From Burkholderiales bacterium (GTDB lineage Bacteria; Pseudomonadota; Gammaproteobacteria; Burkholderiales; SG8-41): a stretch of DNA of 64,000 nucleotides. The position numbers and the translations under genes are program-made. Below, piece by piece: positions 14,805 to 46,918 of this stretch. A model generated the notes under the pieces. That model was given only the letters and a program-made list of their open reading frames with translations. It was not told the origin of the DNA and ran no database searches. The stretch lies in the NCBI GenBank assembly GCA_964203275.1, contig CAXNMF010000010.1, positions 16,159 through 80,158 on the forward strand. Direction: 5' to 3'. Position 1 is the first letter of the stretch. Each line of letters begins with the position of its first letter.

Positions 14805-14813
14805 AGGTGCCAT

Positions 14814-20479: not shown

Positions 20480-20505
20480 AATGGATAGGGGTGGTAGATG
20501 AGCGA

Positions 20506-20886: not shown

Positions 20887-22098
20887 CTAATGATGTTCAT
20901 CCACAGCGCGTGGAATCAGGCTCTGTTTGCCGAGCGGTTTTAACGATGCTTCATTACTGTTCAGGCAAATCTCGCGCATCGCCAGCAGTGCCCGGGCTGC
21001 CGCGGTTTCGCGCCAGAACCAGTTTTCGATCGCCAAAGGCGCTAGATTGCCCGGTTGTGCGGCAGCCGCTTCGTAGTAATAAGCCTTGATGTCGTCGCAC
21101 GCGCGTTTCACCGCAATGCCCGCCGACCAGTCTGGCTTGGGTGGAGCAACCGGCTTGCCCTCCAGATAAGCAGCGACATGATTCGCCGCGTCATCCACCG
21201 TCGCGGCAAAGACCCCGACGGTGGTGCGTCCGCGGCGTTTTTTCGCCAAGTCATACCAGGACGCCAGCTGTGCAATCTCTTCAAACATCGCACGGCCCAG
21301 TTCATCCGCTTTCAGCGGAGGCGGTGCAAAACTGACGGGACAGGCGAAACCGCCTTGCTGCGTTTCAGTTGCCGGCGCTTCTTCGGGAAAATCCTCCAGC
21401 ACCGGTCCTGTCTGACGTTCGAACAATGTCAGAAGTGCATGCAGCACGCGACGCTGGAAGTCCGGCTCATTCGGCGCGCCCAATGGCCGACCGAGCATGA
21501 ACGGCACCCACAAGGCCCGCGGTGGCCGGATCGCCGCGGTCTGCTCGCGAATCAGACTGATCTGCGCAGTCGCAACGCCTTCCCGTTCCAGGTAGTGGCT
21601 CAGTGCGCCCACGGCGCACGTGCAGTTCGGTCAGACCGGCGTTAGTACAACCGCGTCTACGCGATCTTTTTTCAGCAGCGCAGCCAGTTCGCGGGCTTTT
21701 GGTTCGAGTGCGCGGATCGGCGCCGCACCCATGAAGGAATAATGGAAATCTGCAACTTCTCCGATTACTCCGCCCGCTGCCAGTTCGCGCAGCCGCTGCA
21801 GCGGAAATGCGACGTTGAGATCTTCCTGAAAACCGGTACGGTCGAAATTGACCGACATGTGGCTCATCACCAGATCGCCCGGCGGCGTATCACCGGGAAT
21901 CACGCGATAGTCCGTAGCACCAGTGGCGAACGGACGGTCATCGCGCACATGAATGCCTGCCGTAGTAACAATCGCGACGCGGCGCTCACGCAGTGGCGAT
22001 CCTGCAAGGAACGGTGTGTGGCCGAAGTCAGGCAGATCGTCAATCTTGTCGAGATGATGCTTACGTTCTGCTTCGGGAAAATCGCTCAATCGCGCCAT
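20887..22098 (-). CDS. GrdB/PrdB-family (glycine/sarcosine/betaine/D-proline reductase subunit B-like) selenoprotein; in-frame TGA at 21631..21633 read as Sec (codon 156)
   Basis: Track ORFs 21631..22098 and 20887..21612 are in the same frame with only a TGA and 6 sense codons between them: ...DRVDAVVLTPV-U-PNCTCAVGALSHYLEREGVATAQISLIRE... Hairpin immediately downstream. selA, selB and selC are in the window. GGAGA RBS before the ATG at 22098. Confidence 0.8.
21603..21619 (-). promoter_or_regulatory. Putative bacterial SECIS hairpin for the GrdB-like gene
   Basis: On the minus strand, GUGCGCC-GUG-GGCGCAC: perfect 7-bp stem, GUG loop. Stem starts 11 nt after the UGA; loop G is 19 nt from it. 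Confidence 0.55.
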
Positions 22099-22170
22099 AT
22101 CATCTCCAGTTTGATCGCCTTCACGCCTGCACCCTGACTGCAGAAACGACAGTGTGTCACAGCGGACATT

Positions 22171-22755
22171 TTATTTTTGGAGACAGCGCAGCATCACCGC
22201 TGCGATATCGCTCAGCACCGCACGATCGGGATTGGCCTTGCCGACCAGCCGTAAACCCTGGATACCGGAAACCAGAAAACGCGCCAGCGATGCCACATCC
22301 GCATCCGCTGCAATTTCACCACGCGTCCGCGCGCGTGCGAGCGCAGTCTCAAACGCGGCTTCGATCCGCGCCAGACTTTGCCGCACCCGGGCCGCCGTCG
22401 CGCGATCCTGCGCGGCCAGCTCGGTGGCGCAATTGCCGATGAAGCAGCCGGCACGGCCCGGCCCGGCAACGACGCGGTCGATCAATCCGTCGATGAATCC
22501 GCTGATCGCCTTGAGTACCGGCGCGTCTCCGGATAACGCTGCATCAATGCGCCCCAGCGTTTGCCCCTCGTAGCGTTCAAGCGACCGGTGCAGCAACTCG
22601 CGCTTGCCGCCATAAGCCGCATAAAGGCTGGATCGGCTTAGCCCGGTGACCGTGCATAAGTCATCGATGGAAGTTCCGCGATAACCCCGGGCCCAGAAGG
22701 CCTGCATGGCCTTCTCGACAGCCGCTTCAGCGTCAAATTCACGCGGTCTGGCCAC
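22171..22755 (-). CDS. TetR/AcrR-family transcriptional regulator
   Basis: N-terminal HTH FWARGYRGTSIDDLCTVTGLSRSSLYAAYGGKRELL. 194 aa. Shares 1 nt with the upstream DUF302 gene. Confidence 0.88.
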   Translation of the reverse strand: MARPREFDAEAAVEKAMQAFWARGYRGTSIDDLCTVTGLSRSSLYAAYGGKRELLHRSLERYEGQTLGRIDAALSGDAPVLKAISGFIDGLIDRVVAGPGRAGCFIGNCATELAAQDRATAARVRQSLARIEAAFETALARARTRGEIAADADVASLARFLVSGIQGLRLVGKANPDRAVLSDIAAVMLRCLQK

Positions 22756-23204
22756 TAGCGCACGGACTCCGCTGCGAGTCCGGCGAGGGCTTTCTGCAGA
22801 TTGGGCACTACGGCGCAGTTGCCGGCTTCGTGGCGTTTGCCGAGGTAAGCGGGATCGTTATAGCCCAGCCAGTTTTGCCCTGAGGCATCCTGCCACGCCA
22901 GCACCTTCAGCGGCAGGTCGATGCCGGCGGTCTGCGCGCATTCCATCAAAGGTGTGCCGCCCTGCGGGTTGCCGAACACCAGCAATTCCGTGGGGCGCAG
23001 ATCCTTGCCGATTTTTTTTGCGCCGGCGGCATGGTCAACGCGCAGGAATATATTGAGTCCCTTGCCCTTCGCCGCAGCCTCGAAACGATCCATCGTGTCT
23101 TTGACGCTGTGTGCGCTTTTCACCGCGATCAGCCCGTCAGCGGCACCCGCGTGTACGGCAAACATGGCGAACAACGTTCCAGCAATGATGCAATTCAAGC
23201 CCAT
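22755..23204 (-). CDS. DUF302 domain protein with signal peptide
   Basis: MGLNCIIAGTLFAMFAVHAGAADG then SVKDTMDRFEAAAKGKGLNIFLRVDHAAGAKKIG...ELLVFGNPQGGTPLM...IDLPLKVLAWQD (DUF302 pattern). GGAGA RBS before the ATG at 23204. Confidence 0.75.
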   Translation of the reverse strand: MGLNCIIAGTLFAMFAVHAGAADGLIAVKSAHSVKDTMDRFEAAAKGKGLNIFLRVDHAAGAKKIGKDLRPTELLVFGNPQGGTPLMECAQTAGIDLPLKVLAWQDASGQNWLGYNDPAYLGKRHEAGNCAVVPNLQKALAGLAAESVR

Positions 23205-23220
23205 GATTTTCTCCAATGGA

Positions 23221-23817
23221 TTATTTGGCATGCACGCCAGGGGTCCATCCGGAAGCCGTGAGGTGCTCCCGGGCGAATTCCAGCGGATGGTCTTCAAGTT
23301 GTGTTGCCAGCGTGTCGTTCCACCGGTTCATCCAGCCGAACATGGAAATCACCGAGACGATTTCGATGATGGCGTCTTCGGAAAAATGTTTTTTCAGTTC
23401 ATCGAAATGCGCGTCCGTGACCGAAGGCGGCGTGCCGCCGGCAGCAAGAGCCAGATTGAGCGCAGCCCGCTCGGCCGGCGTAAACAGCGGGCTGGACTGG
23501 AACTGCCACAAGGCGTGCAGCTTCTCATCCGCCACCTTGCCGCGCTCGACAGCGTTTTCGGCGTTGTGCGCGGTGCAGTAGCGGCAGCCGGAGGCATTGC
23601 TGACGACTTCGGCGATCATGAAACGCAGTGCTGCCGGCACTTCGCCGGCATCCACCATCACCGCATCGCGCAGTTCTCGCACCAGCCTGAACACCCGCGG
23701 TTTGCGCGCCAGGGTCAGCCAGCTGTTGGGGACATACCCGCGCTGCTTGCGGGCCTTTTCGAAGTCCGGGGCGAGTTCCGCCAGGCGTTCGGCCGGCGCA
23801 GGTGAGATACGGGACAT
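23221..23817 (-). CDS. Carboxymuconolactone decarboxylase (AhpD-like) family peroxidase-related protein
   Basis: CxxC motif within IAEVVSNASGCRYCTAHN, typical of the AhpD/CMD fold. Start set at MSRISPAPAERL (ATG at 23817). Confidence 0.75.
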   Translation of the reverse strand: MSRISPAPAERLAELAPDFEKARKQRGYVPNSWLTLARKPRVFRLVRELRDAVMVDAGEVPAALRFMIAEVVSNASGCRYCTAHNAENAVERGKVADEKLHALWQFQSSPLFTPAERAALNLALAAGGTPPSVTDAHFDELKKHFSEDAIIEIVSVISMFGWMNRWNDTLATQLEDHPLEFAREHLTASGWTPGVHAK

Positions 23818-24052
23818 GGTTTTCCTCGTGGATGGTGAATCGGTTCGCGGAGTCGGGTTGACCGCTGGCCGATTCATTATAGAATGATCGTTCCAGAATG
23901 CAACTGGCCCGATAATCAACGTCTGCCACGGCGAAACCATGCGGTCCGGCAACACATGGTGACAAGCGACAAGCCGCTTGTAAGGTTTATGCTGCGGTTG
24001 CGACTGACCGGTAGCTTTCAACCGGATCCGTATTTTTCAGGAGTTCATTTCA

Positions 24053-25018
24053 ATGCACGCCACACTCCCGCTGCTGGACGCCACCGGCTTCCCGGCGATC
24101 CACCGCAAGGCAGTCGAGACCCTCCAGGTCAACCTCGGCTACAAGTGCAACCAGAGCTGCCTGCACTGCCACGTCAACGCCGGGCCGACGCGCACGGAGC
24201 TGATGTCGCGTGAAACCATTTTCGAAGTCATCGCCTGCCTGAAGGCGGCAAACATCCGCACGCTGGACGTCACCGGCGGCGCGCCGGAACTGAATCCACA
24301 TTTCCGCATGCTGGTCGAATCCGCTCGCGGGCTTGACGTGCGGGTTATCGACCGCTGCAACCTGACCATCCTGTTCGAACTGGGGCATGAAGACCTCGCG
24401 CAGTTCCTCGCTGATCAACAGGTCGAAATCACCGCATCGCTGCCCTGCTACCTTGAGGACAACGTTGACCGCCAGCGCGGCAAGGGCGTGTTCGACACCA
24501 GTATCCGCGCGCTGCAGAAACTCAACAGCCTCGGTTACGCACAGCCGGGATCGCCGCTGAAACTGAACCTGGTCTATAACCCGCAGGGCCCTGTGCTGCC
24601 GCCCGGCCAGGAAGGCCTGCAGCGCGATTATCAGCAGCGCCTGTTCGACGGCTACGGTGTGGTGTTCAACGAACTGTATGCGCTGACCAATATGCCGATC
24701 CAGCGTTTCGGCAGCACGCTCGTCTCCAAAGGCCAGTTCGATCCGTACATGAAACTGCTGAAAGGTGCTTACCGCGCCGAAAACCTCGACACCGTGATGT
24801 GCCGGACGCTTCTGTCGGTGGACTGGCAGGGTTACGTTTATGACTGCGATTTCAATCAGATGCTGGAATTGCCGCTGCTGTGGAAGGGCCGTCCGCGCAC
24901 ACACCTGCGCGAACTGCTCGGCGCAGACCTTGAAGGCAATCCGATTGCCGTGCGGGACCACTGCTATGGCTGTACGGCAGGGCAGGGTTCTAGCTGCGGC
25001 GGCGCGCTGGCTGACTGA
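24053..25018 (+). CDS. arsS: ArsS-type radical SAM / Cys-rich domain protein (Cys form of a family that includes selenoproteins)
   Basis: Radical SAM cluster motif GYKCNQSCLHCH. C-terminal Cys-rich tail DHCYGCTAGQGSSCGGALAD. Overall match to the radical SAM/Cys-rich family as I remember it. Confidence 0.8.
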   Translation: MHATLPLLDATGFPAIHRKAVETLQVNLGYKCNQSCLHCHVNAGPTRTELMSRETIFEVIACLKAANIRTLDVTGGAPELNPHFRMLVESARGLDVRVIDRCNLTILFELGHEDLAQFLADQQVEITASLPCYLEDNVDRQRGKGVFDTSIRALQKLNSLGYAQPGSPLKLNLVYNPQGPVLPPGQEGLQRDYQQRLFDGYGVVFNELYALTNMPIQRFGSTLVSKGQFDPYMKLLKGAYRAENLDTVMCRTLLSVDWQGYVYDCDFNQMLELPLLWKGRPRTHLRELLGADLEGNPIAVRDHCYGCTAGQGSSCGGALAD

Positions 25019-25036
25019 TCGCACGAAAGCCCATCC

Positions 25037-26422
25037 ATGATCGAACCGGCATTCGCCATCTATTTCTGGGGTTTCCTGCTGCTGTACGGCGGTGCGATGT
25101 ACGCGATCACGCCACGCTCGCGCACGGCTGCCAGTTTTTTCACCGGCAGCGACGACGCGGGCCGTCCGGCCACAGAATGGGCGCTGATGTGCAGCATTTT
25201 CATCAGTTGGATATTCGCCAAGTCGGTGACCAACGCCGCCAATCTCGGCGCGGCGTGGGGCGTGGTGGGCGGCCTCGCCTACGCAACCTACTGGCTGTCA
25301 ATCCCGGTCGCCGGCATCGTGATTTACCGGTTGCGCACACGCCATGGCGCGACCGGACTGGTACCTTTCCTGATCACGCGTTACGGCAGGCTTGCCGCAT
25401 TGGCGTTCACGCTGGCCATCCTGATCCGGCTTTACAACGAAGTCTGGAGCAACACAGCCGTCGTCGGCGCCTATTACGGACAAGCCGGCTCATGGACCTT
25501 CATCACCGCAGCGCTGCTGTTTACTGCGGCGACGCTGGTCTATGCACTGAAGGGCGGATTACGCAGTTCCATCGTTACCGATGTCATCCAGACCGTTCTG
25601 TTCATCGTCGCACTGGGTGCCGTGCTGTTCCTGGTGCTGCCGCACCATGGCCTGGGCACGCTGCTGTCGGTCGGCGACTTCCGCATGAATGCCGGCGTCG
25701 ACCTGATTCTGGTCGCACTGCTGCAGGTACTGTCCTATCCCTTCCACGACCCGGTGCTCACCGATCGCGGTTTCATCACCCGCGAGAAAACCATGCTGCG
25801 CGCGATGATCACCGCCGGCGTGCTGGGTTTCGTCTGCATCTTTGCATTCAGCCTGGTCGGTGTTCACGCCAAACTGGAAGGGCTGCCTGCGGGCGACAAC
25901 ATGCCGGGCGCCGTTGCGCTGGCCTTCGGCACGATTCCCTATCTGCTGATGACCATAGTGATGATCATGGCCGCGGGTTCGACGTTGGACTCGACATTCG
26001 CCTCGGTCGCCAAGTCGATCGGTCAGGAAGTGCCGATGCTCGTCGGCCGCAAACCGGGTGCGCGTGCGATGGTTGTGGGCATGTGGACAATGATCGTGTT
26101 CGCGCTGCTCGGCAACATTCCAATGATTGCCGGCACCGACATTCTGAAGGCCACCACCATCAGCGGCACGATGGTGATGGGCCTGGCACCGGTGTTCCTG
26201 CTGGCGCCGTTGGTCAAACATTCCCCATGGAGCTTCCATCTGGCGTTCTGGCCCGGCGTGTTGCTCGGTGTGCTGCTTGCGGCCGGCATGATTCCGCCGT
26301 CCTTGGCCATTGGTGACGGCAAATACGCATTGCTGCTCGGCGTGAACTTTTACGGGCTCGGCCTGTGCACTGCTGGTTTCCTGCTGCCGATTGCCCTGCA
26401 GAAACTGCGCGGACCACGATGA
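25037..26422 (+). CDS. Sodium:solute symporter (SSS)-family-like permease
   Basis: 461 aa, about 12 TM segments. Stop overlaps the next start (ATGA at 26419..26422). Family assigned from overall topology and sequence feel only. Confidence 0.6.
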   Translation: MIEPAFAIYFWGFLLLYGGAMYAITPRSRTAASFFTGSDDAGRPATEWALMCSIFISWIFAKSVTNAANLGAAWGVVGGLAYATYWLSIPVAGIVIYRLRTRHGATGLVPFLITRYGRLAALAFTLAILIRLYNEVWSNTAVVGAYYGQAGSWTFITAALLFTAATLVYALKGGLRSSIVTDVIQTVLFIVALGAVLFLVLPHHGLGTLLSVGDFRMNAGVDLILVALLQVLSYPFHDPVLTDRGFITREKTMLRAMITAGVLGFVCIFAFSLVGVHAKLEGLPAGDNMPGAVALAFGTIPYLLMTIVMIMAAGSTLDSTFASVAKSIGQEVPMLVGRKPGARAMVVGMWTMIVFALLGNIPMIAGTDILKATTISGTMVMGLAPVFLLAPLVKHSPWSFHLAFWPGVLLGVLLAAGMIPPSLAIGDGKYALLLGVNFYGLGLCTAGFLLPIALQKLRGPR

Positions 26423-27423
26423 GTTCCGAGCAACAACCCGGGCGCAGCTGCCCGCTGCACTACCGCTACCCGCCGGAGTCGCTGAACCGTGCTGCGGATT
26501 TCAACGCCGACACGTTGTATGTGATTGGCGGTCTTTATGGCAACGCCGCTGCATTGCGTACCATCGAAGAACTGGCGGCAGCCGAAGCCGCGGTGCCAAC
26601 ACTGACCTTCAACGGCGACTTCAACTGGTTCAACATCGATGCTGCCGGTTTCCGGGACATCAATGAAGCCGTACTTCGCCACCATGCACTGCGCGGCAAC
26701 GTCGAAACCGAACTGGCGAACGATGATGACGCCGAGGGCTGCGGCTGTGGTTATCCAGACAGTGTCAGCGACAAGGAAGTCGAACGGTCCAACGCCATCC
26801 TCGCGCGCCTGCGCGAAACGGCGAAACCTTTTCCGGAGCTGCGTACTCAACTGGCCGCGCTGCCGATGAATCTGGTCGCACAGGTCGGCAAACTGCGTGT
26901 GGCGATTGTCCACGGCGACTGCGAGTCGCTTGCCGGCTGGTCGTACGACGAATCAGCACTGCGCGACGCACCGGGCATTGCCCATGTTGCCGAGCATTGC
27001 AAAGCGGCCGACGTGAATATCATTGCCAGCAGCCACACCTGCCTGCCCGTCGCGCTGGCGCTGGACACGACGAAAGGTGCGGCCGCGCTGTTCAACAACG
27101 GCGCGGCCGGCATGCCCAATTTCGCCGGCACGTCGTTCGGCGTGATCACGCGGATTTCCACAACACCCGCCACGACATCGGCGACCTTGTATGGAACGGT
27201 GATTAACGGCATCCACATCGATGCCATTGCCGTCCACTATGACCACTCCGCATGGCAGGCAGCATTCAGCGCAAACTGGCCCGACGGCAGCACAGCCGAG
27301 CTCTCCTACGGCAAACGTATCAACAACGGCCCGCGTTACGGGCTCAATCGCGCGATGGGGCGCGGTATCCGCATCAGCCGCAACCTGTTGCAACAGGTAC
27401 GCACGGCCGGAGGACAGTCTTGA
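26419..27423 (+). CDS. Metallophosphoesterase-like protein (degenerate calcineurin-type motifs)
   Basis: LYVIGGLYGN, NGDFNWF, LRGNVE, VAIVHGD and IIASSHTC resemble the MPE motif series, but the first DxH is replaced. Start is the ATG at 26419 (MSSEQQPG). Confidence 0.55.
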   Translation: MSSEQQPGRSCPLHYRYPPESLNRAADFNADTLYVIGGLYGNAAALRTIEELAAAEAAVPTLTFNGDFNWFNIDAAGFRDINEAVLRHHALRGNVETELANDDDAEGCGCGYPDSVSDKEVERSNAILARLRETAKPFPELRTQLAALPMNLVAQVGKLRVAIVHGDCESLAGWSYDESALRDAPGIAHVAEHCKAADVNIIASSHTCLPVALALDTTKGAAALFNNGAAGMPNFAGTSFGVITRISTTPATTSATLYGTVINGIHIDAIAVHYDHSAWQAAFSANWPDGSTAELSYGKRINNGPRYGLNRAMGRGIRISRNLLQQVRTAGGQS

Positions 27424-29552
27424 ACAAAAGCAAATTGCTGGTCGTCGCCATCATCGCGGCCGCCATCACCGCATTTTTTGTATTTGACCTGAAGCAATAT
27501 GTCTCGCTGGATTACTTCCAGTCGCAGCGTGCGGCCATCGAAGCTGCCGTGGCCGCAGACCCGGTTCGGGCCGGCCTGCTGTTTTTCGCCATCTACGTCG
27601 CTGCCACTGGCTTGTCGCTGCCCGGCGCCTCGGTACTGACGCTGATCGCGGGTGCCATCTTCGGACTGCTCTGGGGCACCCTCATCGTGTCATTCGCCTC
27701 GACCATCGGGGCCACGCTCGCGTTCCTGACATCACGTTTCCTGCTGCGGGATTGGGTGCAGCAGCGCTTCGGCGACCGGCTGCGTCCGATCAATGAAGGC
27801 GTTGCACGCGAAGGCGCGTTCTACCTGTTCGCATTGCGGCTGGTGCCGGCGTTTCCGTTCTTCGCCGTGAACCTGCTGATGGGGTTGACGCCGATCCGCA
27901 CCGCAACCTACTACTGGGTCAGCCAGCTCGGCATGTTTGCGGGCACCGTGGTCTATGTTTATGCGGGAACCCAACTTGGCGAATTCCGCATCTCGGCAGG
28001 ACTCATCGGGGCCTTTGTATTGTTGGGTCTGTTCCCGCTGATCGCCAAAAAAACCCTCGATGCACTCAAGGCCCGCAAGGTCTATGCCGGCTGGGCACGC
28101 CCGGCAACCTTTGACCGCAATCTTGTCGTGATCGGCGGCGGCTCCGCCGGACTGGTCTCGGCATACATTGCCGCCGCGGTAAAGGCAAAAGTGACACTGG
28201 TCGAAAAACACAAGATGGGCGGTGATTGTCTGAACACCGGCTGCGTGCCGTCGAAGGCGCTGATCAAGTCGGCCAAGCTGGTTGCCACGATGAAACATGC
28301 GACCGATTTCGGTCTGAAAAATACGCTGGTGGATTTTGATTTCGCTGACGTGATGGAACGTGTGCAGCGCGTGGTGCGAGAGATCGAACCGCATGATTCG
28401 ATCGAGCGTTACACGAAACTCGGCGTCGAGTGCCTGACCGGTGAAGCAAAAATCGTATCGCCATGGTCGGTGGAAATCACCACGGCAGGCAGCAAACAGA
28501 CCCTGACCACCCGCGGCATCATCATCGCCGCCGGCGCGCGGCCCTTCGTGCCGCCGATCCCCGGCATTGAAGACACTGGCTATCTGACCTCAGACACGCT
28601 GTGGGACCTTCGCCAGCTGCCGAAGCGCCTGCTGGTACTCGGCGGTGGTCCGATCGGCTGTGAGCTGACGCAGTGTTTTGCCCGCCTTGGTGCGCAGGTC
28701 ACACAAGTCGAAATGCTGCCGCGGCTGATGATACGCGAGGACCCGGAGATATCGGATCTGGTCATGCAGAGGTTCCGCGCCGAGGGCGTCAACGTGCTGG
28801 TCAGCCACAAGGCACAACGCTTCGCCATCGAGAATGGCGAGAAGGTGCTGTATTGCGAGCATAACGGCGACACCGTGCGCATCGTCTTCGACACGCTGCT
28901 CTGCGCCGTCGGCCGCGTTGCCAATACCACCGGTTACGGCCTTGAAGAACTCGGCATTCCTGTGACCAAGGCCCGCACCGTCGAAGTCAACGAATTCATG
29001 CAGACCAAATATCCGAACATCCTCGCCTGCGGCGATATCGCCGGCCCATATCAATTCACACATACCGCAGCGCACACCGCCTGGTACGCCGCAGTCAACG
29101 GCCTGTTCGGCGGATATAAAAAATTCCGCGCCGACTTCTCGGTGATTCCGTGGGCGACCTTCACCGATCCCGAAGTGGCACGCGTCGGGCTTAATGAAAC
29201 CGAAGCGAAGGAAAAAAATATTCCTTATGAAGTCACCACCTACGGCATTGACGACCTCGACCGCGCCATCGCGGACGGCAACGCCCACGGCCTGGTCAAA
29301 GTGCTGACCGTGCCCGGCAAAGACAAAATCCTCGGCGCCACCATCGCCGGCGAACACGCTGGCGACCTGATCACCGAATTCGTCAGCGCCATGAAACACG
29401 GCATCGGACTGAACAAGATCCTCGGCACCATCCACATCTATCCAACGCTAGCCGAAGCCAACAAATACGTCGCCGGGAACTGGAAGCGCAATCACGCACC
29501 TAAAGGATTGCTGGAGTGGGTGGAAAAGTTTAATGCGTGGCGGCGCAACTAG
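27420..29552 (+). CDS. Fusion protein: TVP38/TMEM64 (DedA-like) membrane domain + class-I pyridine nucleotide-disulfide oxidoreductase (MerA/Lpd-like)
   Basis: TTG start overlaps the previous TGA. N-terminal membrane domain (LPGASVLTLIAGAIFGLLWGT...FALRLVPAFPFFAVNLLMG), then VVIGGGSAGLVSAY, redox-active GGDCLNTGCVPSKAL, second Rossmann LVLGGGPIGCELTQ, and a dimerisation domain with HIYPTLAE. Confidence 0.85.
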   Translation: MNKSKLLVVAIIAAAITAFFVFDLKQYVSLDYFQSQRAAIEAAVAADPVRAGLLFFAIYVAATGLSLPGASVLTLIAGAIFGLLWGTLIVSFASTIGATLAFLTSRFLLRDWVQQRFGDRLRPINEGVAREGAFYLFALRLVPAFPFFAVNLLMGLTPIRTATYYWVSQLGMFAGTVVYVYAGTQLGEFRISAGLIGAFVLLGLFPLIAKKTLDALKARKVYAGWARPATFDRNLVVIGGGSAGLVSAYIAAAVKAKVTLVEKHKMGGDCLNTGCVPSKALIKSAKLVATMKHATDFGLKNTLVDFDFADVMERVQRVVREIEPHDSIERYTKLGVECLTGEAKIVSPWSVEITTAGSKQTLTTRGIIIAAGARPFVPPIPGIEDTGYLTSDTLWDLRQLPKRLLVLGGGPIGCELTQCFARLGAQVTQVEMLPRLMIREDPEISDLVMQRFRAEGVNVLVSHKAQRFAIENGEKVLYCEHNGDTVRIVFDTLLCAVGRVANTTGYGLEELGIPVTKARTVEVNEFMQTKYPNILACGDIAGPYQFTHTAAHTAWYAAVNGLFGGYKKFRADFSVIPWATFTDPEVARVGLNETEAKEKNIPYEVTTYGIDDLDRAIADGNAHGLVKVLTVPGKDKILGATIAGEHAGDLITEFVSAMKHGIGLNKILGTIHIYPTLAEANKYVAGNWKRNHAPKGLLEWVEKFNAWRRN

Positions 29553-29866
29553 GCTTACAAGAGCGCTCGATCGACCAATGGTTTTGAGGTCCCCCTTGTG
29601 AGCCGCCGAGCAGCACAGCGATTTCGGGGGCCGTCGGCGAGCACTGTCTGAGCCCTCGCCTGCGAGGGCGAGTTGCGGAGCCGCCCGGCCGCGCGAGCAG
29701 CGCAGGGAAGCCCGAAGGGCCGGCGAGCCGGGGTCGCCTTCTTTTGGTTACTTTTCTTGGCGAAGCAAGAAAAGTAACTGGCCGCCGGGCCACCCCCGGC
29801 GAAGTTGAAGCACCGCACAACCCACGACCACAAAAAAATCACAAGCCGTACCATTAAATCAATCCC
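29553..29866. repeat. GC-rich REP-like mosaic element with a 13-bp perfect hairpin
   Basis: GTTACTTTTCTTG-GCGAAG-CAAGAAAAGTAAC (29747..29778) and palindrome GCCCTCGC-CT-GCGAGGGC (29652..29669). The track ORFs here (29530..29820, 29555..29854) are Arg/Pro/Gly-rich shadows typical of such elements. Confidence 0.65.
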
Positions 29867-30697
29867 ATGAAAAACCTCCTCTCCATCCTGCTACTGACCT
29901 TGATCCCGCTGGCAGCCACTGCCCAATCCTTCGACCACGACCACAAACCCTGGGCCACCCTGCTCAAAAAACACGTCGTGCTCTTCGACAACAGCAAAGC
30001 CTCACAAGTCCGTTACGCCGGCTTCGCGCAAGATCGCAATGAACTAAAGGCCTACCTCGGCACGCTGTCCAAAGTGACCCAGGCCGAATTCAACGCCTGG
30101 ACCAAAGCGCAACAAATGGCTTTCCTGATCAATGCCTACAACGCCTACACGGTCGAAAAAATCCTCACCCGCTACCCGAACATCAAATCCATCCGGGATT
30201 TCGGAAAAGTTTTTGGAAACCCCTTCAAGGACAAATTCTTCACATTGTTGGGCCGCGAACATTCGCTGGACATGATCGAACACGAAACGCTGCGCAAGCC
30301 CGGCGCCTACGACGAGCCGCGGGTGCATTTCGCGGTGAATTGCGCGTCAACCGGCTGCCCGATGCTGCGTGAGGAAGCCTACGTCGCCGCGCGCCTGGAT
30401 GCGCAACTGGAAGAGCAAACCAAACGCTTCCTGTCCGACCGCAGCCGCAACCGCTTCATCGTGCAGGACAATGCGCTGGAGGTATCGGAGATATTCAAAT
30501 GGTTCGCCACCGACTGGAGCAGCGGCTACCGTGGTTTCGAAGGAAAAAGTCCGGCGATGCAGTCGCGAGAACAGTTTTTTGCGAAATATGCAGCACTGCT
30601 CGCCGATTCACCGGCACAGCAGCAGAGCATTGCCGATCGCAAGGCTGCAATCCGGCATCTGGATTATGATTGGACGTTGAACGACGCCAAAAAATAA
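29867..30697 (+). CDS. DUF547 domain protein, secreted
   Basis: Signal peptide MKNLLSILLLTLIPLAATAQS. AFLINAYNAYTVEKIL and RVHFAVNCASTGCPML are the DUF547 hallmarks. Confidence 0.8.
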   Translation: MKNLLSILLLTLIPLAATAQSFDHDHKPWATLLKKHVVLFDNSKASQVRYAGFAQDRNELKAYLGTLSKVTQAEFNAWTKAQQMAFLINAYNAYTVEKILTRYPNIKSIRDFGKVFGNPFKDKFFTLLGREHSLDMIEHETLRKPGAYDEPRVHFAVNCASTGCPMLREEAYVAARLDAQLEEQTKRFLSDRSRNRFIVQDNALEVSEIFKWFATDWSSGYRGFEGKSPAMQSREQFFAKYAALLADSPAQQQSIADRKAAIRHLDYDWTLNDAKK

Positions 30698-30703
30698 CTG
30701 CTG

Positions 30704-31390
30704 ATGTCGCTATCACTGATCGTCCCGACACTGAATGAAGCCCACGGCATCATCGACATGCTGCAAGCCTTGCAGCCGTTGCGGGACCGTGGCTGCGAGG
30801 TTATCGTGGTGGACGGCGGCAGCACCGATCACACACCGGTGCTGGCGCGACGCTGGTGCGATCTGGTGCTGCGCGCGCCCGGCGGCCGCGCCAGACAGAT
30901 GAATGCCGGCGCAGCGGCTGCCAGCAGCGAGATCCTCTGCTTCCTGCATGCGGATTGTTTTTTGCCGGAGGGCGCCGACGGACTGATCGTCGCTGGCCTC
31001 GCGCGTGGCCGGCGCAGTTGGGGACGTTTCGACGTCACGATCCACGGCTCACACCCGATGCTGCGCGTGGTTGCATGGATGATGAACTGGCGTTCGCGGC
31101 TGACCGGTATCGCCACGGGTGACCAGGGCCTGTTCATGACGCGCTCGGTGTTTGAAGCGGCAGGACGTTTTCCAGAAATCGCGCTGATGGAAGACATCGC
31201 GCTGACAAAACAACTCAAACGTTATGGCAAGCCGCTGTGTATCGCCCATCGCCTGACCACCTCGGGTCGGCGCTGGGAAAAACACGGGCTGTGGCGCACG
31301 GTGCTGCTGATGTGGCGCCTGCGGCTCGCTTACTTTCTAGGCGCGGACCCCAATCGGCTGGCCGCCCAGTATGTCCGCCACAAACCCTGA
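30704..31390 (+). CDS. Family-2 glycosyltransferase-like protein (the 'transferase 2' partner of ArsS-type rSAM proteins)
   Basis: SLIVPTLNEAHGI...VIVVDGGSTDHT...FLHADCFLP (GT-A fold, DxD-like motifs). Confidence 0.75.
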   Translation: MSLSLIVPTLNEAHGIIDMLQALQPLRDRGCEVIVVDGGSTDHTPVLARRWCDLVLRAPGGRARQMNAGAAAASSEILCFLHADCFLPEGADGLIVAGLARGRRSWGRFDVTIHGSHPMLRVVAWMMNWRSRLTGIATGDQGLFMTRSVFEAAGRFPEIALMEDIALTKQLKRYGKPLCIAHRLTTSGRRWEKHGLWRTVLLMWRLRLAYFLGADPNRLAAQYVRHKP

Positions 31391-32018
31391 TCTGACGATC
31401 CTCGTTTTCGCCAAAGCACCGGTACCCGGCACGACGAAGACACGCCTGATCCCGCTGCTGGGTGCGGAACAGTCTGCGGCATTGCAGTCGCGCTTGCTGC
31501 GGCATGCCCTCGCAACGGCATCTGCAGCGGCACCGGCCCGCGTCGAACTGTGGTGTGCACCGGATGCCACCCATCCCGCGCTGATCGCCGCGGCACAGAC
31601 CTGCGGCGCAACACTGCACGTGCAGCACGGCGACGAACTGGGTGCGCGTATGGCAAATGCGTTCACCAGCGCATTGCAACGCGTACCTCTCGCCATCTGC
31701 ATCGGGACCGACTGTCCGGCGCTGACCGTTCAGCACCTGCATGATGCAGCCGCGGCACTACGCGCAAACCACGATGCCGTATTCGTGCCGGCGGAAGACG
31801 GCGGCTATACATTGGTCGGGCTTTCACGAAATGAACCGCGAGTGTTCGGCAATATCACCTGGAGCAGCGAGCACGTGATGCGGCAGACTCGCGAACGCGC
31901 GCGTGCCTGCGGGTTGCGCTGGCATGAAATGGAAACCCTGTGGGACGTAGACCGGCCGGAAGACTGGCAACGCCTGCAGCAATCAGGACTGCTCGATGCA
32001 ACACCGTCGCCGGCCTGA
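31371..32018 (+). CDS. DUF2064 nucleotidyl/glycosyl-transferase-like protein (the 'transferase 1' partner of ArsS-type rSAM proteins)
   Basis: LVFAKAPVPGTTKTRLIP...GDELGARMANAF...CIGTDCPALT...VFVPAEDGGYTLVG is the DUF2064 pattern. 20-nt overlap with the preceding gene. Confidence 0.75.
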   Translation: MSATNPDLTILVFAKAPVPGTTKTRLIPLLGAEQSAALQSRLLRHALATASAAAPARVELWCAPDATHPALIAAAQTCGATLHVQHGDELGARMANAFTSALQRVPLAICIGTDCPALTVQHLHDAAAALRANHDAVFVPAEDGGYTLVGLSRNEPRVFGNITWSSEHVMRQTRERARACGLRWHEMETLWDVDRPEDWQRLQQSGLLDATPSPA

Positions 32019-32784
32019 GCGTCTGCGTGCGCTATTGGCGGCGCTGGCGATGCTAACGGTCGCAACCGCGTACGCGGTTGAGGAGCGCGTCATCGCCGCC
32101 GCCTTTTCCGTCGTACGGCCCGGTGCGGCGCTACCCACAGGCTGGGGGCCGCTGGAGGCCGCGAACATCAAGGTGCGCACGCGCTACACGCTGGTGGATG
32201 ACAACGGCACAACAGTATTGCGTGCCGATTCCGAACGGGGCGCCTCGGGACTTTCACGCCAGTTGCACATCAATCCGACCGAACTGCCGTGGCTGCGCTG
32301 GCGCTGGAAAATCAGCAACCTCATCGAAACCGCGGATCTGCGAACGAAGGAAGGCGACGATTTTCCGGCGCGGATCTATGTCATGTTTGATTACCCACTG
32401 GAAAAGCTGCCCTTCCTGGAACGCAACAAGCTGCGAATGGCCAGAGCACTCTTCGATCCGAATCTGCCTGCGGCGACACTGTGTTACGTATGGGACGGCA
32501 AGGCTGCCGCAGACACCATCGCGTCCAGCGCTTATACCGACCGTGTAAAAATCATCGTCGTCGAGTCTGGCTCCAGCCGGGTCAGGCAATGGGTGAATGT
32601 CGAACGCAACATCGCACGTGATTTCCGCGCGGCCTTCGGCGAGGATGCCCCACCCGTCAGCGCCATTGCCGTGGCCACCGACACGGATAACACGGGTACT
32701 TTTGCAACAGCCCATTTTGGCGATATTTCTTTTAATAAACATCAAGTTAAGACACCGCCCGCAAGTGCGACAGCGAATCCTTGA
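31996..32784 (+). CDS. DUF3047 domain protein, secreted
   Basis: Signal-like N-terminus. LRWRWKISNLIETADLRTKEGDDFPARIYVMFDYP matches the DUF3047 core. 23-nt overlap with the preceding gene. Confidence 0.7.
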   Translation: MQHRRRPERLRALLAALAMLTVATAYAVEERVIAAAFSVVRPGAALPTGWGPLEAANIKVRTRYTLVDDNGTTVLRADSERGASGLSRQLHINPTELPWLRWRWKISNLIETADLRTKEGDDFPARIYVMFDYPLEKLPFLERNKLRMARALFDPNLPAATLCYVWDGKAAADTIASSAYTDRVKIIVVESGSSRVRQWVNVERNIARDFRAAFGEDAPPVSAIAVATDTDNTGTFATAHFGDISFNKHQVKTPPASATANP

Positions 32785-32941
32785 GGAAATTGTTGTTGCC
32801 TTTTAGGGGGGGCTGGGGAAGAATGGCCCCTCATTTTTGACGCGGCTTCATTGCACTCGAATCAGCGCTAAAAAACTTTAAGAATCAGGCCCTTGAAACC
32901 TCATCGACGGCTGACCAACCCGTAACTTTCGCACCTGCTGC

Positions 32942-34051
32942 ATGTCCGATCTATCCAGCGTTTCCGCGTTCGGTAAAACCTCCACGCAACTCCCTGTACA
33001 GTGGTATTTCGATCCGCATATTTATGAGGTCGAAAAACGACTGCTGTTCGACAATGGCCCGGGTTATATCGGCCATGAACTGATGGTGCCGAACACCGGC
33101 GACTATCATGCGCTGGCGTGGCTCGATAACGCGCAGGCGCTGGTGCGCAACGCCAGCGGCATTGATCTCATCTCAAACATTTGCCGTCACCGTCAGGCGA
33201 TCATCCTGAAGGATCGCGGCAATACCCAAAACATCATCTGCCCGCTGCATCGCTGGACCTACGGCCTCGACGGCAAACTGCTCGGTGCGCCGCATTTTCC
33301 AGACAGCCCCTGCCTCGATCTAGCGCGCACGCCGCTGACCAACTGGAACGGCCTGCTGTTCTCGGGACGCCGCGATATTGCGCGCGATCTGGCGAAACTC
33401 GGCGTGATGAAGGATTTCGATTTTTCCGGCTACATGCTCGACCGCGTCGAGATCGATGAATACGCCTGCAACTGGAAAACCTTCATCGAGGTTTACCTCG
33501 AGGATTATCACGTCGAACCCTTCCATCCCGGGCTCGGCCACTTCGTCAACGTCAACGACCTGCGGTGGGAGTTCGGCGACTGGTACAGTGTGCAGACCTG
33601 CGGCATCGCCAACCAGCTTGCGCGTCCAGGCAGCCCCGTCTACCAGCGCTGGCATGATCACGTGCTGCGTTACGGCGAAGGCAAGGCACCGGCGCACGGG
33701 GCAATCTGGCTGACCTATTTCCCGAACATCATGGTCGAGTGGTATCCGCATGTGCTGGTGGTCAGCACCATCGTGCCGCGTGGTCCCGAAGCCTGCAGCA
33801 ACGTCGTCGAGTTTTATTACCCCGAAGACATCGCGCTGTTCGAGCGCGAATTTGTCGAGGCCGAACAGGCCGCTTACCGCGAAACTGCAGTCGAGGATGC
33901 CGAGATCATCACGCGCATGACCGATGGCCGGCGCGCGTTGTGGCGGCAGGGTCGCAGCGAAGTGGGTCCCTACCAGTCACCATTGGAAGACGGCATGGTG
34001 CATTTCCACGAATTCCTCCGGCGCGAAGTGGAACACCAGCTCTATAAATAA
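32942..34051 (+). CDS. Rieske [2Fe-2S] non-haem-iron oxygenase alpha-subunit-like protein
   Basis: Rieske motif CRHRQAIIL...CPLHRWTY. Catalytic-domain-like EVYLEDYHVEPFHPGL (His ligands). Confidence 0.8.
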   Translation: MSDLSSVSAFGKTSTQLPVQWYFDPHIYEVEKRLLFDNGPGYIGHELMVPNTGDYHALAWLDNAQALVRNASGIDLISNICRHRQAIILKDRGNTQNIICPLHRWTYGLDGKLLGAPHFPDSPCLDLARTPLTNWNGLLFSGRRDIARDLAKLGVMKDFDFSGYMLDRVEIDEYACNWKTFIEVYLEDYHVEPFHPGLGHFVNVNDLRWEFGDWYSVQTCGIANQLARPGSPVYQRWHDHVLRYGEGKAPAHGAIWLTYFPNIMVEWYPHVLVVSTIVPRGPEACSNVVEFYYPEDIALFEREFVEAEQAAYRETAVEDAEIITRMTDGRRALWRQGRSEVGPYQSPLEDGMVHFHEFLRREVEHQLYK

Positions 34052-34177
34052 TTTCTTTAAATACAATTAGTTATATACATAATCAGGTGGCCGCGAGCTG
34101 CCGTTTTTATTTGCGGCGCTTGATTTTCGGTTGGCGTTTGCTACCTTTGCCGCTCCCGCTTCCACCGGATTGCCGCG

Positions 34178-35029
34178 ATGGCCCACAAGACGCTGATCAG
34201 TGCCGACGAAACCGCAGCTCATCTGAAAGATCCGGACTGGGTCATTTGCGACTGCCGGCATGACCTTGCCGATTACAGCGCCGGCTACCGCGCTTACCGC
34301 AACGGCCATATCCCCGGCGCGCGCTTTCTGCATCTGGATGTTGATCTGTCCGGCCCGAAAACCGGCCTGACAGGTCGCCATCCCTTGCCGCACCCTGCAA
34401 CATTCTCGTTGCGACTCGGCGCACTCGGCATCGATAACAGCAAGCAGGTCGTTGCCTATGACGACAGCGGCGGCCCCTTCGCCGCCCGCCTGTGGTGGAT
34501 GCTGCGCTGGGTTGGACACGAACGTGTGGCGGTGCTCGACGGCGGCTGGAATGCATGGCAGCAGGCGGGATTGCCTTATACGGTTGCACAACCGGAAATC
34601 GAACCAGCCATTTTCAGCATGCGCGTGCAGCCACAAATTGCTGTCGACAGCAAACAAATCCTCACAGACCTGCAGGAACGCAGGACGCAAATCATCGACG
34701 CGCGCGCGCCGGATCGCTATCGCGGTGAAAACGAAACGCTGGATCCCGTCGCCGGCCATATACCAGGCGCCATCAACCGATTCTTCAAGCTCAATCTCGG
34801 TGATGACGGGCGCTTCAAATCGCCAGCAATACTTCAGCAGGAATTCGCCGTGATGCTAAACGGACGCCATCCACAGACCGTCATTCACCAATGCGGCTCC
34901 GGTGTGACCGCGTGCCACAACCTTCTGGCGATGGAACTTGCCGGCATGAACGGCTCACGGCTCTACCCGGGATCCTGGAGCGAATGGGTCAGTGACCGCC
35001 GCCGCCCGGTCGCCGGCGGCAGCAACTGA
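34178..35029 (+). CDS. sseA: Tandem-rhodanese sulfurtransferase (3-mercaptopyruvate/thiosulfate sulfurtransferase type)
   Basis: Two rhodanese domains. Active-site loop HQCGSGVTACH. GHIPGA appears twice. YPGSWSEW C-terminus. Confidence 0.85.
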   Translation: MAHKTLISADETAAHLKDPDWVICDCRHDLADYSAGYRAYRNGHIPGARFLHLDVDLSGPKTGLTGRHPLPHPATFSLRLGALGIDNSKQVVAYDDSGGPFAARLWWMLRWVGHERVAVLDGGWNAWQQAGLPYTVAQPEIEPAIFSMRVQPQIAVDSKQILTDLQERRTQIIDARAPDRYRGENETLDPVAGHIPGAINRFFKLNLGDDGRFKSPAILQQEFAVMLNGRHPQTVIHQCGSGVTACHNLLAMELAGMNGSRLYPGSWSEWVSDRRRPVAGGSN

Positions 35030-35101
35030 ATCAAGTTTCACGCAGGTACTTCGCTTGAATCTGCTGCTTGCAGATCTGGGCTGATCGTTCATTTCATATT
35101 T

Positions 35102-35431
35102 GTGCTGTTCGTGCTCGCGGGATTGCCGCTGATCTGGATCGGCGCAGCAGCCGGCTGGCGCTGGGTGCTTCATTTCGGATTTCGCGCATCCCATCTTGCG
35201 GCAATCCTCATCGTCAGCGCCGAGGCGCTTGCAGGAGTCTGGTGTCCGCTGACTCTTCTGGAAGATGCGCTGCGGGGGAATTCAGCCGACAAAGGCTTTA
35301 TCGCACGTTGGCTGCATGCACTGCTGTATTACGATCTGCCCTTATGGATGTTCACCGCAGCCTATCTTGCATTTGCCGCCCTGGTCGTTCTGACCTGGTG
35401 GCACTTACCACCGATAAGCAAACGATCATGA
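35102..35431 (+). CDS. DUF2784 membrane protein (N-terminus possibly longer; frame break near 35078)
   Basis: HLAAILIVSAEALAGVWCPLTLLEDALR is the DUF2784 core. In another frame, TTG 35055 gives MNLLLADLG, which would join LIVHFIFVLFVLAG if one base were missing in the GGG run at 35078..35080. Confidence 0.65.
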   Translation: MLFVLAGLPLIWIGAAAGWRWVLHFGFRASHLAAILIVSAEALAGVWCPLTLLEDALRGNSADKGFIARWLHALLYYDLPLWMFTAAYLAFAALVVLTWWHLPPISKRS

Positions 35432-35456
35432 AAAAGGGGCGCTTTGCGCCCCTTTT
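35432..35456. terminator. Bidirectional rho-independent terminator
   Basis: AAAA-GGGGCGC-TTT-GCGCCCC-TTTT, between the convergent DUF2784 and fccB genes. Confidence 0.75.
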
Positions 35457-35479
35457 AGTTTCGTCGAAACTTACGAAGA

Positions 35480-36751
35480 TCAGGCCAGTGCTTCTGCCCA
35501 GATGTTACGTGCCCAGCCCCAGGCGTAATTACCTTCGGCAACGCTCGCTGCAGTCGAAACACCGCCACTGCCCTTGACCGCCACCATCGTCTTCTGCGCC
35601 GCATCGTACCGATGAACCGAGGCCACGTGCATCGCACTGTCGCCGCTGACGAAGCTGTAGCAGGTGTTCATCATCATGGTATCGGTATTTACCGGCTGCC
35701 CCTTAAGCAGTGCAATCACACCAGCCGCGCAAACTTTCGCATGCTGATTGGCCATGCTTCCTGACTTCGGCATTGCCGGTGCAGAAAGTGTTGCATCGCC
35801 GAGCACATGCACACCTTTGACTGCGGTTGATTCGCAGGTAGTCCAGTCAACGCCGCACCAGCGGTTGTTGGCCGTGATCAGGCCACTGCGGACCGCAATA
35901 TCGGCGGCGCGCTGTGCCGGCACCACGTTGATGACGTCCGCTTTGACGTCATCGAACTGCAGCTTGATGGTCATGCCTTTGACATCAACATCAGCGATTT
36001 CGCTGTTCGGCCGATATTCGATCATGCCTTTGTAGGCACCATTCCACGCCGCCAGAAACAGCCCCTTCTTGGATGTGATATCCGGGTTCGAATCCAGCAC
36101 GAGTATTTTCGATTTAGGTTTCGCCTTCTTGAAATAACTGGCGACCTGGCACACACGTTCGTAGGGACCCGGCGGGCAGCGATACGGCGCCATCGGGATC
36201 TGCAGCGCGTAGACGCCACCGTCCCTCATCGACTCCAGCTGTTTGCGCAATGCAATGGTCTGCGCACCGGCTTTCCAAGCATGAAGTATCCGCGACTGGG
36301 CATCGGCGGATTTCAATGCCGGAATCTGGTCGAACATGAATTCGATGCCCGGCGATACCACGACACGGTCAAAGGGCAAGGTCTGTCCGCCGGCGAGCGC
36401 GACCTGGCGTTTTTGCGCGTCAATGGCGACCGCCGTATCACGGACCACACGGATGCCGCGACTGCGCAGGCCGTCATAGCTGAAAGATATCTGCGACATT
36501 TGCGCATTGCCGCCGATCACGAGGTTGCTGATCGGGCAGGATACAAAATGTTCGTTGGGCTCGACCAGGGTCACGTCGATGTCAGGCGCCCACAGTTTGA
36601 TGTATTTCGCAGCGGTTGCGCCGCCGTAACCACCGCCGATCACCACAACGCGACCTGCGCTGCCGCCACCGCCCGTTGCACAACCAGCAAGTGTTGCAAC
36701 ACCTGCGCCCGCCGAAGCCCATTTGATGAATTCGCGTCTCGAAAAAGTCAT
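35480..36751 (-). CDS. fccB: Flavocytochrome c sulfide dehydrogenase, flavoprotein subunit (FCSD/SoxF-like)
   Basis: Tat signal MTFSRREFIKWASAGAGVATLAG. FAD fold VVVIGGGYGGATAAKY. CPISN and PYRCPPGPYER motifs of the FCSD family. Confidence 0.88.
   Translation of the reverse strand: MTFSRREFIKWASAGAGVATLAGCATGGGGSAGRVVVIGGGYGGATAAKYIKLWAPDIDVTLVEPNEHFVSCPISNLVIGGNAQMSQISFSYDGLRSRGIRVVRDTAVAIDAQKRQVALAGGQTLPFDRVVVSPGIEFMFDQIPALKSADAQSRILHAWKAGAQTIALRKQLESMRDGGVYALQIPMAPYRCPPGPYERVCQVASYFKKAKPKSKILVLDSNPDITSKKGLFLAAWNGAYKGMIEYRPNSEIADVDVKGMTIKLQFDDVKADVINVVPAQRAADIAVRSGLITANNRWCGVDWTTCESTAVKGVHVLGDATLSAPAMPKSGSMANQHAKVCAAGVIALLKGQPVNTDTMMMNTCYSFVSGDSAMHVASVHRYDAAQKTMVAVKGSGGVSTAASVAEGNYAWGWARNIWAEALA

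Positions 36752-45756: not shown

Positions 45757-46918
<1,162 letters not shown>

Follow-up and report, generated by a model that had tools for sequence, protein, structure and literature searches.

Arsenosugars and arsenolipids are major arsenic species of aquatic food webs, and to our knowledge ArsM and ArsS are the only enzymes that have been shown to act in arsenosugar biosynthesis. ArsS adenosylates dimethylarsenite, DMAs(III), to 5′-deoxy-5′-dimethylarsinoyl-adenosine (DDMAA; PMC13598754), and the steps that follow this compound are proposals only (PMC10456119). The gene set of Cyanobacteria and Bacteroidota consists of the methyltransferase ArsM (NF038099), the radical SAM enzyme ArsS (TIGR04167), TIGR04169, TIGR04282 and TIGR04283, all of which are already modelled by NCBI. 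Here we describe a cluster of eight plus-strand open reading frames (ORFs) at positions 24053-32784 of a 64,000-nucleotide stretch of a freshwater Burkholderiales genome (GCA_964203275.1, contig CAXNMF010000010.1; the whole stretch is referred to as the window), which has ArsS, TIGR04282 and TIGR04283 in common with that set, all above cut-offs, but lacks ArsM and TIGR04169. Judging from gene content, there is about an even chance that a permease and a Cys-rich phosphoesterase-like protein of this cluster stand where related bacteria have ArsM, which would mean that organoarsenic compounds are reached here by a way not yet described. The features of the cluster, in window coordinates, are as follows.

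23858..23885, + strand: sigma-70-like promoter candidate TTGACC-16-TAGAAT upstream of arsS (consensus scan, 10/12 matches; pattern match only)
24053..25018, + strand: ArsS, radical SAM 5′-deoxyadenosyl transferase, cysteine and not selenocysteine (Sec) form (TIGR04167; Radical_SAM and DUF3641)
25037..26422, + strand: SSS-like (sodium:solute symporter superfamily) permease, 461 aa (PF00474, TIGR00813)
26419..27423, + strand: Cys-rich degenerate metallophosphoesterase-fold protein (MPE), 334 aa (predicted structure; no Pfam or NCBIfam match above threshold)
27420..29552, + strand: VTT/DedA membrane domain fused to a class I flavoprotein disulfide reductase (VTT-FDR), 710 aa, TTG start
29553..29866, + strand: structured spacer of 314 nt between block 1 and block 2
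29867..30697, + strand: secreted DUF547 protein (PF04784, 93.2 bits; signal peptide read from sequence)
30704..31390, + strand: GT2-type glycosyltransferase (TIGR04283, 275.2 bits, cut-off 182)
31371..32018, + strand: DUF2064 / CofC-MobA-like nucleotidyltransferase-fold protein (TIGR04282, 203.5 bits, cut-off 134)
31996..32784, + strand: secreted DUF3047 protein (PF11249, 245 bits; signal peptide read from sequence)
32807..32832, + strand: terminator-like hairpin after DUF3047, ending block 2 (9-bp stem followed by a T-run; pattern match only)

Six of the eight families, in the same order and at 50-70% identity, are shared with proteobacterial operons of the arrangement ArsS-VTTred-(DUF547)-GT2-DUF2064-(DUF3047)-ArsM (loci L243, L244 and L268), of which L243 reads ArsS-VTTFDR-GT2-DUF2064-DUF3047-ArsM, contiguous and on one strand. 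These operons end in an ArsM-like gene and lack SSS and MPE, whereas the window has SSS and MPE after ArsS and no ArsM. Four genes of the cluster (SSS-like permease, degenerate MPE, VTT-FDR and DUF3047) were not encountered in the Bacteroidota loci, while DUF547 is a neighbour in both phyla and falls outside the NCBI-modelled set. In the literature searched, neither the proteobacterial extension around ArsS (VTT-FDR, DUF547, DUF3047 and TIGR03169) nor the MPE-like family, the SSS-like permease or the alternation of ArsM with SSS/MPE is described.

The gene neighbourhoods were determined in four seeded surveys, each comprising the best ~80 loci (~320 in total) and up to 10 kb of flanking DNA on either side (up to 8 kb in the ArsM type A survey). 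The seeds were ArsS, the curated arsenosugar ArsM (type A, NF038099), the SSS-like permease and an ArsM-like methyltransferase common in Betaproteobacteria (type B), and presence in a locus was scored by tblastn, ORF clustering and hidden Markov models (HMMs). The following counts refer to loci holding ArsS, in the order ArsS-seeded with full flanks (n = 48), SSS-seeded with full flanks (n = 35) and ArsM type B-seeded (n = 40).

VTT-FDR: 34/48, 34/35, 33/40
GT2: 33/48, 31/35, 33/40
DUF2064: 30/48, 29/35, 32/40
DUF547: 23/48, 28/35, 11/40
MPE: 19/48, 33/35, 0/40
DUF3047: 14/48, 21/35, 13/40
TIGR03169 oxidoreductase: 13/48, 7/35, 16/40
ArsM: 8/48, 0/35, 40/40
MTAP: 6/48, 0/35, 12/40
SSS: 5/48, 35/35, 0/40

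It was established by tblastn and HMM searches that an ArsM-like ORF is present within 10 kb in none of the 80 SSS-seeded loci, 72 of which have ArsS immediately upstream of the permease, as compared to 15 of the 73 SSS-negative ArsS loci; the comparison of 0/80 with 15/70 gave p = 4e-6 (Fisher, shared ancestry ignored). SSS and MPE were likewise found in none of 158 ArsM-seeded loci, and within the ArsS-seeded set MPE occurred in 1 of 15 loci with ArsM and in 26 of 65 without it (p = 0.015, again ignoring shared ancestry). By this distribution the SSS-like permease and MPE are the sole cluster genes specific to arsM-less clusters, a pattern that had been overlooked in an earlier reading of this DNA from its letters alone (the sequence-only reading). 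That reading had also stated that the window holds neither arsM nor ars genes, and this was borne out: tblastn with 15 ArsM sequences detected no ArsM in the 64-kb window, and arsR, arsB, acr3, arsC and arsH were found neither among the ~30 Pfam-scanned ORFs outside the cluster, a scan that left out ~8 stretches of the window, nor among the annotated genes of 15.4-30.3 kb. Both cluster types are found within Polaromonas, Gallionella and Methyloversatilis. The SSS/MPE type is represented among isolates by Polaromonas sp. AET17H-212, Denitromonas ohlonensis SFB-1, D. halophila SFB-3, Methyloversatilis sp. MC4-4 and XJ19-49, and Cognatazoarcus halotolerans HKLI-1, and the ArsM type by Polaromonas sp. 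AER18D-145 and Herminiimonas fonticola S-94. Three ArsM-like subfamilies, mostly of <35% mutual identity, are each clustered with ArsS, that of locus L041 being intermediate with 42-46% identity to type A.

The ArsS protein of the window matched TIGR04167 with 455.2 bits (cut-off 300) over model positions 2-303 of 303 and contains the sequence CNQSCLHC, which represents the CX3CX2C radical SAM motif (Cys32/36/39). Its C-terminal DUF3641 domain (PF12345) scored 181.5 bits, no in-frame stop is present, and Cys32/36/39 and Cys250/265/304/307/315, all eight, are invariant across 240 homologues. From the activity of the family, 5′-deoxyadenosylation of DMAs(III) is predicted for this protein. In a neighbour-joining tree of the 240 ArsS sequences the SSS-type and ArsM-type members are interleaved, requiring ~18 changes for the SSS state and ~21 for the ArsM state, so that the two cluster types do not reflect one deep split, and no specificity-determining column among these sequences discriminates SSS-type from ArsM-type clusters.

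The permease matched PF00474 through its N-terminal 170 residues (32.8 bits, cut-off 22.8; profile positions 4-171 of 406) and TIGR00813 at 37.5 bits against a cut-off of 184, and showed weak matches in the PDB to SGLT1 and CHT1 (E ~1e-5). The protein encoded next to it had been called a degenerate metallophosphoesterase, an assignment now backed by an AlphaFold2 model (pLDDT 90.9, pTM 0.91), by Foldseek matches of this model to 1nnw, 2gju, 3qfm and 3rqz (E 8e-11 to 1e-8), and by Metallophos_2 matches below threshold in 26 of the 39 MPE family members, the window protein scoring 15.3 bits against a cut-off of 27. MPE has the same fold as calcineurin-like metallophosphoesterases such as YfcE and the Ap4A hydrolase SapH (Foldseek E ~1e-10, TM-score up to 0.7 on target), whereas no Pfam model is reached at threshold and its motifs GGLYGN, NGDFNWFN, RGNVE, VHGD and SHTC are altered from the canonical DxHG, GDxxDR, GNHE, H and GHxH. 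The canonical dinuclear motifs are incomplete, D67, N94, H165 and H206 being kept while other ligand positions are occupied by Gly, Tyr, Val and Cys; the four kept residues are invariant in the family, as are Cys11, Cys108, Cys110 and Cys208. It appears from these residues that one metal site (D67, N94, H165, H206) was kept and the other lost, and that invariant cysteines were gained. Searches of PDB sequences with MPE, DUF547 and DUF3047, and with an MPE profile, gave no match, while ~1,200 MPE-family clusters at 50% identity were recovered when 1.84 billion representative proteins were searched with a profile.

MPE is also found naturally fused to ArsS (P0436, 688 aa, and P0483, 616 aa) and to DUF2064 (P0374); a further candidate fusion, P0378, was rejected as a probable frameshift artefact, its tail being Arg-rich nonsense. 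Contig L320 1-10357 (ENA ERZ15610165 NODE_8429) carries three ArsS paralogues on ~10 kb: one is fused to ArsM (683 aa), one stands alone and is accompanied by a TIGR04169 partner, and one is the MPE-ArsS fusion P0436, so that both kinds of fusion lie side by side. The contig also encodes a CobW-like GTPase and another ArsM-like protein. The existence of both MPE-ArsS and ArsM-ArsS fusions indicates that MPE and ArsM hold an equivalent place at the ArsS N-terminus.

Our preferred reading, in which belief and doubt are evenly balanced, is that the two blocks represent one unit making an arsenosugar-type organoarsenical for the envelope, with the permease and MPE replacing in-cluster methylation. 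That uptake has been swapped for methylation is held with somewhat less conviction, and we are more tentative again about the wider proposal that widespread freshwater and soil Beta- and Gammaproteobacteria may scavenge methylated arsenic produced by others, an SSS permease and MPE feeding ArsS in the formation of an arsenosugar or arsenolipid for the envelope. Rather unlikely, though deserving of consideration, is the alternative that the same arsenosugar-type pathway operates with an ArsM encoded elsewhere in the genome, the permease and MPE performing jobs other than substrate supply, such as uptake of the glycosyl acceptor, processing of the adenosyl intermediate or recycling of the product. 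ArsM was located within 10 kb in just 8 of the 48 ArsS loci with full flanks, so arsM genes away from arsS may be frequent, and half of the type B ArsM loci have no ArsS nearby; furthermore, the nearest structural relatives of MPE, e.g. SapH, handle nucleotides, and the DUF2064-MPE fusion likewise agrees with such other jobs. The 0/80 and 0/158 counts are nevertheless hard to reconcile with independent functions, and the shared N-terminal position of MPE and ArsM in fusions with ArsS also argues against an ArsM acting in trans.

Several observations weigh against the replacement of in-cluster methylation by permease and MPE, or against the steps proposed below. When exclusivity of SSS and ArsM was assessed at the level of ~12 independent lineages, p rose to ~0.06. 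ArsS, ArsM and MPE are encoded in a row in locus L041, an arrangement which would also suit an ArsM acting in trans, and MPE is present in 13 full-flank loci having neither SSS nor ArsM. The search for arsM covered the 64-kb window alone, so that the gene may be located outside it, and the lack of SSS-type assemblies among the best 80 of either ArsM-seeded list is weak evidence against an unlinked copy. The MPE motifs were mapped onto the metal sites by eye, and the structure predicted for DUF547 was of low quality (pLDDT 69.9), Foldseek giving nothing below E = 2 from which a fold could be assigned. The permease substrate, the chemistry of MPE and the roles of DUF547 and DUF3047 are inferred from context and motifs. 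Finally, three loci from Porticoccaceae-like Gammaproteobacteria (L298, L301 and L306; positions ~7750-11040 in each) carry VTT-FDR and an ArsM-like methyltransferase as a two-gene unit with neither ArsS nor the transferases within 10 kb of the pair, which suggests arsenical handling rather than sugar-lipid flipping, the reductase fusion then serving methylarsenical chemistry rather than the sugar.

In the pathway that we propose for permease-fed synthesis, the SSS-like permease would import a pre-methylated arsenical, for which dimethylarsinate is the obvious candidate. The degenerate MPE may bind this arsenical as a mimic of a phosphodiester and pass it on as a thiol-bound trivalent species, while the cytoplasmic flavoprotein disulfide reductase domain would give or recycle reducing equivalents. 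Following the family literature, ArsS is expected to join the 5′-deoxyadenosyl group of S-adenosylmethionine to As(III), giving DDMAA. Adenine could then be removed by a nucleoside phosphorylase, releasing ribose-1-phosphate; MTAP/PNP-like genes are present in many sister clusters and none is present in the window cluster. DUF2064 would turn ribose-1-phosphate into a nucleotide sugar and GT2 would move the activated sugar onto a glycerol, lipid or polyprenyl acceptor, after which the VTT/DedA domain may carry the lipid-linked product over the inner membrane, where the secreted DUF547 (through its CxxxxC motif) and DUF3047 would finish or relocate it in the periplasm. The acidic motifs of GT-A type enzymes are kept in GT2, the GxxKTRL nucleotide-binding and Asp motifs of DUF2064 are conserved in 147 sequences (NTP_transf_3 matching below threshold), and the NCASxGCP (CxxxxC) motif of DUF547 is invariant, C159 and C164 being fixed in 103 sequences.

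The remaining genes are linked to arsenic by their context in the surveys. Dozens of species of Burkholderiales, Rhodocyclales, Gallionellaceae and several gammaproteobacterial groups share these genes and their order, and the gaps in the Rhodocyclales loci contained no extra conserved gene, merely unrelated insertions (PEP-CTERM and HD-GYP-like, as read from translations). The sequence-only reading had noted five extra genes that the arsenosugar model does not explain and had allowed for a coincidental adjacency; each of the five recurs beside ArsS in the surveys, and coincidence fails as an account of their position. The related notion of two unrelated operons lying side by side, for which the 314-nt spacer with its terminator-like hairpin could be adduced, is refuted by the surveys and is extremely improbable, since the gene order recurs in dozens of species and the spacer of relatives is much shorter. 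The trio of radical SAM protein, TIGR04282 and TIGR04283, which had been described as now carrying the label ‘arsenosugar biosynthesis’, was confirmed as such by NCBIfam profile matches, the GT2 and DUF2064 genes following arsS on its own strand at a distance of 5.7-6.4 kb. Among the extra genes, VTT-FDR, DUF547, DUF3047 and TIGR03169 occur in operons with ArsM, and the sharing of operons by VTT-FDR, DUF547 and DUF3047 with ArsS and ArsM-like genes ties the gene set to arsenic by context. DUF3047 was found in 15 of the 78 ArsM type B-seeded loci as a whole. Of the type A ArsM loci (n = 80, mostly Bacteroidota), 65 contain ArsS, 34 DUF2064, 33 DUF547, 29 GT2 and 28 a PNP/MTAP-like gene. In 50 of the 65 loci with ArsS, the gene immediately preceding it encodes a short AhpD-like TIGR04169 protein (‘arsenosugar biosynthesis-associated peroxidase-like protein’). 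The substrate had previously been called open between arsenic, selenium and another acceptor; these ArsM co-operons leave arsenic less in doubt and we regard its assignment to the cluster as likely, while the selenium lead proved weak.

Two further loci were noted in the course of the surveys. L319 3976-11197 (Psychrobacter sp. 72-O-c) encodes a TIGR03169 oxidoreductase, VTT-reductase, DUF547, GT2, DUF2064, ArsM and MTAP, and ArsS was not detected in this 21-kb locus. Pseudogulbenkiania subflava DSM 22618 yielded two loci, L016 (NZ_FXAG01000024.1) and L284 (NZ_FXAG01000014.1), which show the same genes (MTAP, oxidoreductase, DUF2064, ArsM, ArsS, VTT-reductase and GT2), spacing and percent identities by tblastn with a constant offset of ~2,191 bases, which suggests either a duplication or redundancy in the assembly.

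VTT-FDR combines a VTT_dom match (PF09335, 77.5 bits, threshold 33.9, residues 70-184) with matches to Pyr_redox_2 (205.8 bits) and Pyr_redox_dim (100.8 bits). Over their whole length, the last 480 residues can be aligned with MerA (5x1y, E 7e-76) as well as dihydrolipoamide dehydrogenase, with which VTT-FDR shares the CxxxxC redox centre, present as CLNTGC, and the His-Glu dyad region, present as HIYPTLAE (the HxxPTxxE region). The C-terminus, ...NKYVAGNWKRNHAPKGLLEWVEKFNAWRRN, contains no Cys and hence no MerA-type Cys pair, NmerA is also missing, and the NCBIfam scores are all below their cut-offs, that to the MerA model TIGR02053 being 363.9 bits against 454.45, whereas the N-terminal VTT/DedA domain is an addition relative to MerA. 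Fusion of DedA (COG0398) to a reductase is the commonest DedA fusion and its function is unknown (PMC10127716).

It is improbable that the ArsS of arsM-less clusters adenosylates something other than dimethylarsenite, giving a different 5′-deoxyadenosyl or ribosyl product; its acceptor would then be, for instance, inorganic arsenite, a species of selenium, antimony or tellurium, or an organic nucleophile taken up by the cell. Apart from the absence of ArsM from the window, this possibility is favoured by the selenocysteine members of the ArsS family (PMC13188914), by the TIGR03169 ‘N-terminal-to-SelD’ oxidoreductase in 21 of the 78 ArsM type B loci, and by a DedA protein linked to selenite resistance in an entry of the reference list of PMC10127716. 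The window also encodes Sec machinery, consisting of selA (49617-51023), selB (51020-53041) and tRNA-Sec (54604-54698, anticodon TCA), in a plus-strand locus (49617-54698) which holds in addition a 302-aa thioredoxin-reductase-like flavoprotein and YaeQ. Nearer to the cluster lies a GrdB-like (PF07355) gene at 20887-22098 on the minus strand, called as ORFs of 155 and 241 aa and in reality a single frame of 403 codons, codon 156 of which is TGA (...LTPV-U-PNCTC...); its product is probably a selenoprotein. This gene forms an operon with genes for TetR, DUF302 and an AhpD-like protein with a CxxC motif, the last of which is divergent from the cluster.

23221..23817, - strand: AhpD/CMD-family CxxC protein (TIGR01926, 78.6 bits, just below the cut-off of 81.8)

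The location of the cluster back-to-back with a selenoprotein operon in a Sec-encoding genome, as described in the sequence-only reading, thus stood with respect to the Sec genes and the GrdB-like TGA, while the implied selenium link is weak, given the limited synteny: the Sec genes are at least 17 kb away and synteny of the AhpD-like and GrdB-like genes with the cluster is confined to the closest relatives. A different substrate is also at variance with the interleaving of SSS-type and ArsM-type ArsS on the tree and the lack of any discriminating residue, with the co-occurrence of all accessory genes other than SSS and MPE with ArsM-like genes, and with DMAs(III) being the sole demonstrated substrate of the family. 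The CMD protein represents an AhpD subfamily other than TIGR04169, which is missing from its profile matches and of which true members were seen in L088 and L320; a CMD-like ORF lies ≤1.5 kb from ArsS in 10 of 71 SSS-type loci, and the protein is a possible, weakly linked redox partner of the cluster.

With regard to its organization, the eight ORFs of the cluster are all present in two same-strand blocks where they had been placed, the family assignments hold in Pfam and NCBIfam profile searches, and the junctions previously reported were re-found. ArsS and SSS are separated by 18 nt, SSS and MPE overlap by ATGA and MPE and VTT-FDR by TTGA, TTG being the start codon of the reductase; in the second block DUF547 and GT2 are 6 nt apart, GT2 and DUF2064 overlap by 20 nt and DUF2064 and DUF3047 by 23 nt. 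Together with the promoter-like site before arsS and the terminator-like hairpin after DUF3047, these tight junctions and overlaps support a single unit. The spacer is strongly structured overall; it contains a terminator-like hairpin (29722-29738), followed at 29747-29778 by an inverted repeat of 13 nt that is perfect. It matched only itself in the window and a contig of the same species, being mostly missing in relatives, and the label ‘REP-like’ that had been given to it is unsupported for the 64-kb window as no second copy is present there. An Rfam scan of 20000-35500 detected neither a riboswitch nor any other RNA. An identical ArsS protein is present on contigs of the Burkholderiales metagenome-assembled genome GCA_945862135.1.

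The cluster and its relatives provide a conserved list of candidate genes for the late arsenosugar steps, comprising MTAP/PNP, DUF2064, GT2, DUF547 and the DedA-reductase, and suggest a role in organoarsenic cycling for the abundant heterotrophic Burkholderiales of freshwater. They also place the DedA-flavoprotein reductase fusion, DUF547, DUF3047 and the unmodelled MPE-like family in a functional context for the first time. The alternation of ArsM with permease and phosphoesterase-like protein represents a directly testable hypothesis, namely arsenosugar synthesis from scavenged dimethylarsenic, and if this were true it would be the first case of organoarsenical salvage and of arsenical import by an SSS-family protein, and would add a new function to those of the metallophosphoesterase fold.

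Directly downstream of the cluster, at 32942-35029 on the plus strand, the window encodes a Rieske/ring-hydroxylating oxygenase alpha subunit (369 aa) and a 3-mercaptopyruvate-sulfurtransferase-like rhodanese (283 aa), which are syntenic in ~22 of 80 close relatives. Pfam scans of the window otherwise revealed housekeeping genes, including a phosphonate-type ABC transporter, murJ, arginine biosynthesis, clpA/S, malate synthase and prpD-like genes. A frameshift divides a class-III aminotransferase gene at 6374-7523 (plus strand) into two ORFs that overlap and cover Pfam positions 27-208 and 207-400, respectively, which represents either an assembly error or a pseudogene, and MnmA (45766-46518) is seemingly truncated, its end falling inside the PRC-barrel domain. 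At 14610-15023 (plus strand), in a low-GC patch at 14-16 kb (GC 0.53), two adjacent small ORFs of 64 and 69 aa, followed by a 186-aa membrane ORF, resemble a BrnT/BrnA-type toxin-antitoxin pair and are putatively assigned as such.

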